A DNA stretch of 9,987 nucleotides from a virus (taxonomy: Duplodnaviria; Heunggongvirae; Uroviricota; Caudoviricetes). This document shows, in pieces, positions 8,623 through 9,987 of this stretch (positions are counted from its first letter, which is position 1; each line of letters begins with the position of its first letter). The DNA is taken from positions 1 through 9,987 of IMG/VR virus record IMGVR_UViG_2751185961_000005. One strand, 5' to 3'. The position numbers and the translations under genes are program-made. The notes under the pieces are model-generated. The model had not been told where the DNA came from and searched no databases. It saw only the letters and a list, made by a program, of their open reading frames with translations.

Positions 8623-9270
8623 ATGAAAACGATGCATGAAATTATCGGGGAAAGGATCAAGTCCCTTAGAGAAGCTAAAGGACTTAGCCAGGCTCAATTG
8701 GCCAAGCTTTGCGGCTGGGCTGCGCCTTCACGCCTGGGGAACTACGAGTTAGGAACAAGAAAGGTTAGCGCGGATGACGCGCTGGTTCTTGGGGCGGCAC
8801 TCGGCGTATCTCCGGCAAAAATAATGTTTGGCGAGGATTCAGACGCTGTATTTCGCCAATATGAGTACCCGTTATTTTCTTCAGTGCAGGCCGGGCCGTT
8901 TTCGGAGGTTGGAAGCTACACAGCAAGCGATGCAAAGGCATGGGTCCCAACGACCACAAAAGCCAGCGAAAAAGCTTTCTGGCTTGAGGTGAAAGGCCAT
9001 TCTATGACTGCGCCACAGGGCGTAAGGCCGAGTTTTCCTGAGGGTATGCTGATACTCGTTGATCCGGCCGAGCCGGTAGAGTCTGGGGATTTCTGCGTGG
9101 CTTCTGCAAATGGTGATTCAGAGGCAACGTTCAAGAAGTATGAGAAGGATGCAGGGGTTAGTTACTTGGTTCCATTGAATCCGGCATACAGAACCCTGGA
9201 CTGCGATCACACATGCCGCATCATAGGCAAGGTAGTTAAGGCTCAGTGGCCTGAAGAGACGTTTGGATGA
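8623..9270 (+). CDS. cI: CI-type prophage repressor (HTH_XRE N-domain plus S24 LexA-like autopeptidase C-domain)
   Basis: 215-aa [28 protein letters not shown]; Ala-Gly cleavage site in SVQAGPF; catalytic Ser in KGHSM and Lys in [10 protein letters not shown] 8623 sits 7 nt after the TACATT -10, so the mRNA may be leaderless as in lambda. ATG 8632 with RBS AAAGGA is an alternative start. Confidence 0.9.
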
Positions 9271-9320
9271 TGGATGGTCGCAGAGATGCTCGTAGAGCAT
9301 ACAGCGATGCAGGAGAATTT

Positions 9321-9755
9321 ATGGCACTTAATTTAGAAAGAATATCTTTTATAACCCCATTTGATAGCAGCGAAGAACCCAACCAACCGACGCTTAATTT
9401 TACATGCAATGAATTTCCTGCGCGGCTATCGATTGATTTCAGGGTTGGTATGATCGGGTTGAAACCAAATTCAAGATATAATTTGGGTATTATGGTAATC
9501 CCCGCGCACCTAATTATAAAAAAAGGTGAGGAAATTCAATTCCCTGACGGCTCTTCGGAATCAGTTTCACTTTTCATCGATACGAAAGATAGCCATTTTG
9601 AAACAGGGGTTGGCGGACAGGTAATAGTAACATTGAAAGAAATTAGGGTCCCAGCTAAAGGGCTGTATAGTGTTATAGGGATATTGCAAGATAATGAAGA
9701 CCCTAAAAATGAACTTCATAAAAATGAATCATTTTTCACCGTAGAGCTATTATGA
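9321..9755 (+). CDS. Hypothetical protein (144 aa), first gene of the cI-downstream pair in the rex-equivalent slot
   Basis: ATG 9321 preceded by AGGAGA. AT-rich coding sequence contrasting with cI. No TM segment or motif I recognise. An alternative start at ATG 9267 overlaps the cI stop (ATGA) and adds 18 residues. Confidence 0.6.
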   Translation: MALNLERISFITPFDSSEEPNQPTLNFTCNEFPARLSIDFRVGMIGLKPNSRYNLGIMVIPAHLIIKKGEEIQFPDGSSESVSLFIDTKDSHFETGVGGQVIVTLKEIRVPAKGLYSVIGILQDNEDPKNELHKNESFFTVELL

Positions 9756-9987
9756 GTGACGACAGTAATTTAAATAATCATGGAAAGCAAGACACCAACA
9801 TATCTGAAAGCCGGAGGTTGAAGGTTGTTGGCGGTTCCGATTTTGAGGCTGAATTTGATAATTCTCCCACCAAGGTGCAAAATAATTACATAAAACCGCC
9901 ACAAACGGAGGAAGAAGTGGGAACGATCAGCAGAGAGGAACTTGATGCTCGCTTAGCTGCTAATAAAGCAGAGATGGAGTCTATTGC
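9752..9987 (+). CDS. Hypothetical protein, partial (first 78 codons; continues past the right window edge)
   Basis: ATG 9752 overlaps the stop of the preceding gene (ATGA). Translation MSDDSNLNNHGKQDTNISESRRLKVVGGSDFEAEFDNSPTKVQNNYIKPPQTEEEVGTISREELDARLAANKAEMESI: a polar, likely disordered N-terminus followed by a probable helix. Confidence 0.55.
   Translation, partial: MSDDSNLNNHGKQDTNISESRRLKVVGGSDFEAEFDNSPTKVQNNYIKPPQTEEEVGTISREELDARLAANKAEMESI

Follow-up and report, generated by a model that had tools for sequence, protein, structure and literature searches.

The interval downstream of the repressor gene cI is occupied in phage lambda by rexA and rexB; what stands there in lambdoid phages that carry neither gene, and what could it do for the lysogen? 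The question is raised by a 9,987-nucleotide (nt) stretch of a Caudoviricetes virus (record IMGVR_UViG_2751185961_000005, positions 1 to 9,987), referred to below as the window, which carries a lambdoid immunity region. In this region, cI is followed on the same strand by two genes, ORF1 (open reading frame 1; 9321 to 9755, plus strand) and ORF2 (from 9752, plus strand), the second of which leaves the window after 78 codons. A first reading of the letters (the sequence-only reading) had placed the pair in the rex slot and proposed that it is a horizontally acquired, two-component exclusion or defence system. Comparison with relatives identified ORF1-ORF2 as a horizontally exchanged accessory cassette of lambdoid repressor operons. 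We see an even chance that the pair is a lysogen-expressed exclusion or abortive-infection module, RexAB-like in its working and not in its descent.

Exact replacement of rexA-rexB in the repressor operon

Phages HK542 and HK244 carry the same DNA at 98.8% identity. The cI of HK542 is of the lambda type; aligned with lambda, HK542 shows 98.9% identity throughout cI, as far as 1 base past the cI stop codon, where the alignment ends. No homology was found between the rexA-rexB segment of lambda (1398 bp) and the linker-ORF1-ORF2 segment of HK542 (1106 bp). Homology returns at the rexB stop codon and runs into a shared hairpin, AACCCGGCCTCAGCGCCGGGTTTTCTTTGCC, which we take to be the tIMM terminator of lambda, and then into oL/pL and N. 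ORF1-ORF2 takes the place of rexA-rexB exactly, with the cI stop codon at one end and the shared terminator at the other, and the rex-slot position given by the sequence-only reading was borne out. The layout is the same with the window's own type of repressor: IMG/VR contigs L020 to L022, which match positions 7864 to 9987 at 99.1%, encode the 215-residue cI of the window, the same complete ORF2 and the same terminator, with the pair in the rexAB position ahead of oL/pL.

Extending the sequence rightward through relatives gave the full ORF2 of 206 residues (L001 is 99.9% identical over the module), the terminator, oL/pL and N. The terminator is a GC-rich hairpin with a T-run located 6 nt past the ORF2 stop codon in L001, L020 and L023, and it is followed by a pL-like promoter and then by N. 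An intrinsic terminator lies 3' of ORF2 in 16 of 19 lineages, at a distance of no more than 13 nt in 13 of them.

The gene arrangement proceeds as first described, with ATGA overlaps and a 50-nt gap. One ATGA (9752 to 9755) couples ORF1 to ORF2, and the other (9267 to 9270) joins the cI stop codon to an upstream in-frame ATG from which ORF1 would be 162 residues long (9267 to 9755). An internal ATG at 9321, 50 nt past cI, gives the 144-residue form, and sequence comparisons identify it as the true start. Homologues of ORF1 in other genera have 143 to 144 residues and start 44 to 84 nt past their repressor gene, the PHROG profile for ORF1 begins at residue 21 of the 162-residue form, and an AGGAG ribosome-binding site (9311 to 9315, plus strand; read from the sequence) lies 5 nt upstream of ATG 9321. 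The 162-residue form, disfavoured by the length of the homologues and by this strong ribosome-binding site, was ruled out because its first 18 codons span a mosaic joint common to phages with other cargo.

This left joint (9243 to 9289, plus strand), delimited by homology comparison, consists of the conserved 3' end of cI and a short linker. Homology to HK542 and to the Escherichia coli copies of the module begins at 9243. Positions 9252 to 9289 are 100% identical in 933W-type Shiga toxin (Stx) phages, which have other genes downstream, so that the long frame of ORF1 would run across the joint. The linker is common to phages with differing cI alleles and differing cargo, and module-specific sequence starts at about 9290. 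The same joint stands behind the 215-residue cI of the window, a lambda-type cI of 237 residues, a cI of 231 residues and a 933W-like arrangement in which a DUF3024 gene intervenes. This last gene, of 113 residues (Pfam, 2.4e-31), separates cI from ORF1 in most E. coli-type IMG/VR copies (L023 to L032, L034 and L037); it is placed likewise in 933W-type Stx phages and also occurs in L018 (2158 to 2499), and a fossil of the cI 3' end (GAAGAGACGTTTGGATGA) is kept after it.

Between lineages, synonymous sites are saturated in both ORFs (proportion of synonymous differences, pS, 0.72 to 0.84) and the proportion of nonsynonymous differences (pN) is 0.11 to 0.44, indicating that ORF1 and ORF2 are real genes under purifying selection. 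The pair is more AT-rich than cI, as noted in the first reading, with a G+C content of 0.37 to 0.39 over positions 9301 to 9900 versus 0.52 to 0.54 in segments over cI. No plus-strand terminator was found between cI and ORF2, and a consensus scan of the same interval revealed no promoter better than chance. An internal promoter for ORF2, comparable to the rexB promoter of lambda, was considered and rejected: the best consensus match (9 of 12; 9855 to 9883) was no better than expected from shuffled sequence. ORF1 and ORF2 are most likely co-transcribed with cI from pRM in the lysogen. Few parts of a prophage are expressed as strongly in the lysogen as the repressor operon.

The module is present in 49 of 5426 complete E. 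coli genomes (about 1%), with 98.9 to 99.9% identity among the matches listed. This patchy distribution and the low G+C content support the view that the genes are horizontally acquired cargo, which we judge to be correct. The window's own type of cI is found at about 92% identity in about 100 E. coli records, whose homology stops at 9270 to 9277, with other cargo beyond. Conversely, the order repressor, small partner and ORF2 homologue recurs in Escherichia, Citrobacter, Phytobacter, Cedecea, Salmonella, Leclercia, Yersinia, Pectobacterium and unassigned IMG/VR viral contigs. The upstream repressors belong to many sequence types, including several S24 cI types and short Rac-like helix-turn-helix (HTH) proteins. 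In most lineages inspected, a terminator closes the unit, which is divergent from a cro- or YdaS-like gene.

Three other cargo sets were found within the same frame of cI 3' end and terminator, and all three match known defence systems in PADLOC, in agreement with the earlier expectation that this slot holds other defence genes. Lambda carries RexA and RexB (9e-110 and 8.6e-61). L019, which has the window's cI type, carries PD-Lambda-2 A and B and a PD-T4-9_C-like gene (3.5e-43, 2.9e-50 and 3.6e-11). Phages of the 933W type carry a Pkinase (Ser/Thr kinase) protein matching PD-T4-6 and mad6 (1e-37 and 6.7e-50). In L019 (5008 to 6349), cI is about 92% identical to that of the window, PD-Lambda-2 is composed of a HigB-family toxin and an HTH protein, and the set is closed by a lambda-type terminator. 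Independently, the paper on BstA names the stretch between cI and N a mosaic hotspot in which abortive-infection systems reside.

ORF1, ORF2 and the modularity of the pair

ORF1 contains no hydrophobic segment (maximum 19-residue Kyte-Doolittle value, 1.01), consistent with the apparently soluble 144-residue protein of the first reading. Its structural model is all-beta, a seven-stranded two-sheet sandwich superposable on immunoglobulin (Ig)-like and FN3-like domains, and in fold searches its PDB matches were generically Ig-like and those in BFVD were all uncharacterised proteins of phages. We predict that ORF1 is a soluble Ig-like beta-sandwich and propose that it acts as a partner or specificity subunit of ORF2. 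It displays no DNA-binding features. The family has no match in Pfam, NCBIfam or PADLOC, and PHROGs places ORF1 and ORF2 in phrog_5893 and phrog_5820, both of unknown function. An exhaustive profile search of 1.84 billion representatives gave 23 matches to ORF1, about 15 of them genuine relatives of small size. The giant matches (P0041, 4194 residues) were discarded, since they are tandem Ig-like repeats in which weak per-repeat scores are summed, a similarity at the level of the fold only. Searches of the PDB sequences with profiles of ORF1 and ORF2 returned nothing below E = 0.01.

The part of ORF2 located in the window (9752 to 9987, plus strand) reads MSDDSNLNN...ISREELDARLAANKAEMESI. It comprises a variable N-terminal head with an LKVVGGSDFEA motif and the start of a conserved SREEL..ANKAE stalk; the remainder of the coiled coil, a single transmembrane (TM) helix and the terminator lie beyond the window. 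The N-terminus is polar, as reported in the first reading, and disordered, and the AlphaFold2 (AF2) model contains helices at residues 61 to 140 and 149 to 175. From about residue 101 the heptad register continues without a break to residue 152, most core positions being Ile, Val or Phe, and relatives differ by whole-heptad insertions or deletions. Through residues 111 to 150, Ile or Val occupies both core positions. Beta-branched residues at both core positions favour trimers (Harbury rules), and the weak PDB sequence matches of ORF2 are trimeric coiled coils (reovirus sigma-1 and HA2, E ≥ 0.01). These features suggest that the stalk is probably trimeric. The TM helix (residues 154 to 172; Kyte-Doolittle, 2.71) is followed by a Pro/Gln-rich tail. 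ORF2 would be a tail-anchored inner-membrane protein with a cytoplasmic N-terminal part, about 150 of the 206 residues being predicted on the cytoplasmic side.

Matches of ORF2 to Baculo_PEP_C, MakA/MakE and SlaB in the family searches were rejected as sub-threshold coiled-coil noise. A profile of the conserved ORF2 core retrieved 102 clusters, and every one with a named source organism is from Enterobacterales; all are labelled hypothetical except for a few automatic domain-derived names. The extended sequence revealed no known structural or regulatory gene at ORF2, which appears as a hypothetical tail-anchored coiled coil.

The genes located 5' of the ORF2 homologues fall into at least four classes with no sequence relationship to one another. 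Class A is the ORF1 family, of predicted Ig-like fold and 143 to 144 residues (L001, L003, L006, L014, L038 and L047); class B is a Salmonella type of 149 residues (L012); class C, of 112 to 120 residues, is a CxxC...CxxC type (L048 to L051); class D1 is short type 1 (92 to 97 residues; L009, L016, L052, L054 and L055); and class D2 is short type 2 (98 to 101 residues; L011, L053, L057 and L058). Homology of ORF1 to the partners of 92 to 101, 112 to 120 and 149 residues was not detected (hidden Markov model [HMM] E ≥ 0.11 and at most one weak BLAST match), and these partner classes have no Pfam family. The 149-residue Salmonella partner, which shares C-terminal features (GLYEINISV...FFFVLV) with ORF1, may be a remote, unproven relative. 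The class C partners contain two CxxC pairs (LICQICGNQ ... ITCDHCAH), look zinc-ribbon-like from this pattern and are followed by an ORF2 with its own type of head.

The head of ORF2 varies with the class of the partner; for example, all ORF2 proteins with a class A partner carry the motif L[KR]V[VI].G[ST].F, and none of the remaining ones does. Similarity between partners is correlated with similarity between ORF2 heads (Mantel r = 0.82, p = 2e-4) and uncorrelated with similarity between ORF2 cores (Mantel r = 0.08, p = 0.24). Sequence comparison places a recombination joint within ORF2, where the conserved SREEL..ANKAE helix begins, and indicates that the partner and the head travel as a single block. 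ORF2 of Citrobacter L003 (5429 to 5998) and of Phytobacter L006 (5429 to 5977) keeps the class A partner, the class A head and the SREEL helix, but its C-terminal coiled coil and TM helix belong to another sequence type (..LQWMVGAILALLAVILALP..) and run into a tail that is Pro-rich or (AP)n; this exchange of the C-terminal stalk and anchor indicates a second recombination joint within the gene. The two-component label of the sequence-only reading calls for refinement: the ORF2 core is what stays constant, and ORF1 represents one among at least four exchangeable kinds of partner.

Relation to known systems and candidate functions

Among the closest known systems is the abortive-infection system RexAB of lambda, which excludes T4 rII and other phages with depolarisation of the membrane and with which the pair shares an identical genomic position and transcription unit (cI stop codon to shared terminator), two coupled genes of which the first encodes a soluble and the second a predicted inner-membrane protein, and the status of AT-rich accessory cargo of the repressor operon. 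The PADLOC models of RexA and RexB, which match the lambda proteins, do not match ORF1 or ORF2 at E ≤ 1; BLASTP gave E = 7.6 for ORF1 versus RexA and no alignment for ORF2 versus RexB. ORF2, with its single predicted C-terminal anchor after a long coiled coil, also differs from RexB, which has four membrane helices. RexA is a 279-residue DNA-binding protein, unlike the 144-residue ORF1 with its predicted Ig-like sandwich. By no test of sequence or architecture is the pair RexA/RexB. The sequence-only reading had found no resemblance to RexA, RexB or any family it could name, and searches of Pfam, NCBIfam and PADLOC and by BLASTP agree with it. In PADLOC-DB v2.0.0, no family matched ORF1 or ORF2 at E ≤ 1, and the positive controls from the same slot all matched. 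Nor did profile searches assign both proteins to well-characterised non-defence families.

That exclusion systems come from the interval after cI is proven by RexAB, BstA, PD-Lambda-2 and Stk. BstA (BTP1), PD-Lambda-2 and the Stk kinase of 933W occupy the same repressor-pL/N hotspot as ORF1-ORF2 and are expressed, or presumed to be expressed, from the repressor promoter; in L018 and L019 the cargo is bounded by the same terminator. Their proteins and mechanisms (DNA-binding for BstA, a HigB-type toxin for PD-Lambda-2 and a kinase for Stk) are unrelated to ORF1 and ORF2, which match none of them. Prophage pairs of a cytoplasmic and a membrane protein, the latter being a growth-arresting effector, have been described for RexABpp of Pseudomonas putida and for gp30/gp31 and gp44/gp43 of mycobacteriophages Sbash and CarolAnn, respectively. 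Those pairs combine RexA-like DNA-binding sensors with polytopic RexB-like proteins, whereas the candidate sensor is predicted to be Ig-like here and the membrane protein to be a tail-anchored coiled coil with interchangeable heads. HepS (Nature 2026) is an unrelated HEPN protein. In the literature on HK542 and HK244, protein accessions WP_012601625 and WP_001278660 and the hotspot, we found no characterisation of the pair.

The nearest annotated family for ORF2 is the DUF1640/CCDC90-like family PF07798, which is the top Pfam match of distant relatives, these aligning to the stalk-plus-anchor end of its profile. ORF2 scores 12.7 bits (E = 0.11), and P0108, P0112, P0118, P0119, P0120 and P0135 score 22.7 to 31.2 bits; neither ORF2 nor these distant relatives reach the gathering threshold of 33.5 bits. 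DUF1640 comprises scaffold-type membrane proteins of prokaryotes and mitochondria with a published head-neck-stalk-anchor architecture (MCUR1 and CCDC90B) and, where the stalk begins, a beta-layer motif, [aliphatic]-A-T-K-[polar]-[DE]. ORF2 is built likewise, with a variable head at the N-terminus, a coiled-coil stalk and a TM anchor at the C-terminus. The consensus ANKAE stands at the start of the stalk in the ORF2 family, with E74 invariant and K72 and A73 invariant or nearly so. The spacing L-A-A-N-K-A-E-M in ORF2 appears to fit an ordinary heptad with a core Asn rather than a 6- or 9-residue beta-layer. To our knowledge, no function is known for DUF1640 in prokaryotes.

An anti-phage role is the best supported reading of the pair, because all three other cargo sets found in the slot are defence systems, the genes lie in the repressor operon, they encode a soluble and a predicted membrane protein, and their diversification is of the kind seen in conflicts. 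In a possible mechanism, the variable head of ORF2 would be followed by a coiled-coil stalk of about 90 residues running in heptad register into one inner-membrane helix. ORF1 would bind the head, and the two would form the recognition part. Sensing of an infecting phage would lead the conserved stalk and the membrane helix to act as a membrane effector, which would either perturb the membrane or energy state, resulting in abortive infection, or interfere at the site of entry.

Several observations weigh against this proposal. With PADLOC, Pfam and NCBIfam negative, the case for defence is one of position and architecture. The positional part of the earlier defence hypothesis stands, and its functional part draws on association and architecture, no defence HMM having matched. 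The slot is a general mosaic hotspot and could carry non-defence cargo, and RexA and RexB themselves are also reported to affect the lysogeny-to-lysis transition in lambda. The confidence of the ORF1 model is only moderate, and that of the AF2 model of ORF2 is low outside the helices. An anchor of one helix, probably trimeric, is no obvious candidate for an ion channel. The tail motif PIIIQVP, conserved in the ORF2 family, is degenerate in the window's own type. The correlation between partners and heads could be explained by linkage alone, since the partner gene directly adjoins the 5' end of ORF2, which encodes the head. Finally, L008, L052, L053 and L055 carry the pair with no adjacent recognisable repressor. 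In L008, from one Yersinia genome, a short-partner and ORF2 pair (4695 to 5699) is located beside dinI and Mu/P2-type baseplate genes, and the pair can therefore exist outside an immunity region.

Among other explanations, superinfection exclusion (Sie) at DNA entry, in which ORF2 would block genome injection without killing the cell and ORF1 would have an accessory or stabilising role, ranks highest, and we still regard it as unlikely. Such a block has been reported for HK97 gp15, P22 SieA, T4 Imm and lactococcal Sie2009, and membrane Sie genes often adjoin repressor genes. ORF2 is predicted to be a single-pass inner-membrane protein, its PIIIQVP motif would be short and periplasmic, and the pair is apparently expressed from the repressor operon, as a lysogen-expressed exclusion gene would be. 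Against this stand the predicted cytoplasmic location of about three-quarters of ORF2 (the 150 residues mentioned above), including the diversifying head, and of the partner, which has no signal peptide; both would fit intracellular sensing better than the obstruction of an entry channel in the periplasm. The periplasmic motif is also the one that has degenerated in the window copy, and neither ORF1 nor ORF2 matches a named Sie family (SieA, SieB, gp15, Imm and similar) in Pfam, NCBIfam or PHROG.

The pair might instead be lysogenic-conversion or host-physiology cargo, a membrane scaffold for envelope stress, ribosome tethering or virulence by analogy with the tail-anchored coiled coils ElaB/YqjD and mitochondrial MCUR1/CCDC90B. 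The DUF1640/CCDC90-like architecture, the PF07798 scores of distant members and the lack of a defence HMM match would accord with such a role. We consider it less probable again, since members of the family occur only in prophage immunity regions of Enterobacterales, heads and partners are swapped rapidly, as is typical of conflict systems, and all three other sets of cargo found in the slot match defence systems. Membership of the cI transcription unit, the order of a small soluble protein and a coupled membrane protein, suited to a regulator and its effector, and the HigB-family toxin-antitoxin-like system in the same slot of related prophages would also agree with a phage life-cycle module, tuning lysis-lysogeny or induction or acting as an addiction pair with ORF2 as a membrane toxin and ORF1 as its inhibitor. 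This is the least probable of the alternatives: ORF1 is predicted to be Ig-like and has no DNA-binding features, the pair occurs behind unrelated repressor and switch types (S24 cI and Rac-like), which argues against a switch-specific role, and PD-Lambda-2, the HigB-type cargo, is a validated defence system in its own right.

A broader form of the anti-phage reading holds that ORF2 and about 100 relatives constitute an unrecognised modular antiviral family of probably trimeric, tail-anchored stalks on the cytoplasmic side of the inner membrane, in which interchangeable heads, each with its own small partner (Ig-like, zinc-ribbon-like or of either short type), would sense different phage cues and feed a common membrane effector, with MCUR1/CCDC90B (DUF1640) as distant cousins. 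We consider this doubtful, placing it behind exclusion at DNA entry and ahead of host-physiology cargo. If true, it would provide the first prokaryotic function for DUF1640-like proteins and an example of plug-and-play sensors in one two-gene system. The defence hypothesis is directly testable, since the cassette is present in the cultured and available phages HK542 and HK244. Its confirmation would make the swapping of head and partner on a constant membrane stalk a tractable model for the exchange of immune specificity by recombination and would point to a bacterial function for DUF1640-like membrane coiled coils; its refutation would mean that the rex slot also carries non-defence cargo.

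The remainder of the window

The first gene of the operon encodes the 215-residue cI repressor (8623 to 9270, plus strand; Peptidase_S24, 3.9e-26; HTH_31, 2.4e-11; HTH_3, 2.8e-10), whose C-terminus, ...QWPEETFG, is the same as that of lambda cI. On the opposite strand, cro (8296 to 8553 as listed, minus strand; HTH_3) and cII (7860 to 8156, minus strand; Phage_CII in Pfam, 1.5e-33) are divergent from cI. The cro-cI divergent control region (8515 to 8622) is the presumed site of oR, pR and pRM and contains an operator-like inverted repeat, TTAATCACA/TGTGATTAA, at 8531 to 8566. A simple consensus scan of 8515 to 8622 found no promoter, and the promoter positions would be those suggested by analogy with lambda and by the annotation of HK542.

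The replication module (4951 to 7697, minus strand) is composed of an HTH_36 initiator gene (6942 to 7697) followed by a gene for a 626-residue fusion of Toprim and DnaB-like primase-helicase (4951 to 6831), and it stands where lambda-type O and P would be. Two Rfam matches on the minus strand, the Hfq-binding small RNA isrK (2195 to 2272; 76.3 bits) and a C4 antisense RNA (2085 to 2169; 74.4 bits), fall in an ORF-free gap (2031 to 2487). Immediately downstream of them on this strand are two antirepressor genes (1317 to 2030 and 520 to 1248, minus strand) with the domains ORF6N and P22_AR_C, and KilAC and Rha, respectively. This set looks like an antisense-controlled antirepressor module of the P1 C4 type or the Gifsy-1 IsrK type. 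Two HNH homing-endonuclease-like genes (2488 to 3090, NUMOD4 and HNH_3; 3489 to 4157, HNH_3 and AP2; both minus strand) flank and overlap ninB (3083 to 3574) in a stretch with a G+C content of 0.35 to 0.41, which suggests selfish endonuclease insertions in the nin region.

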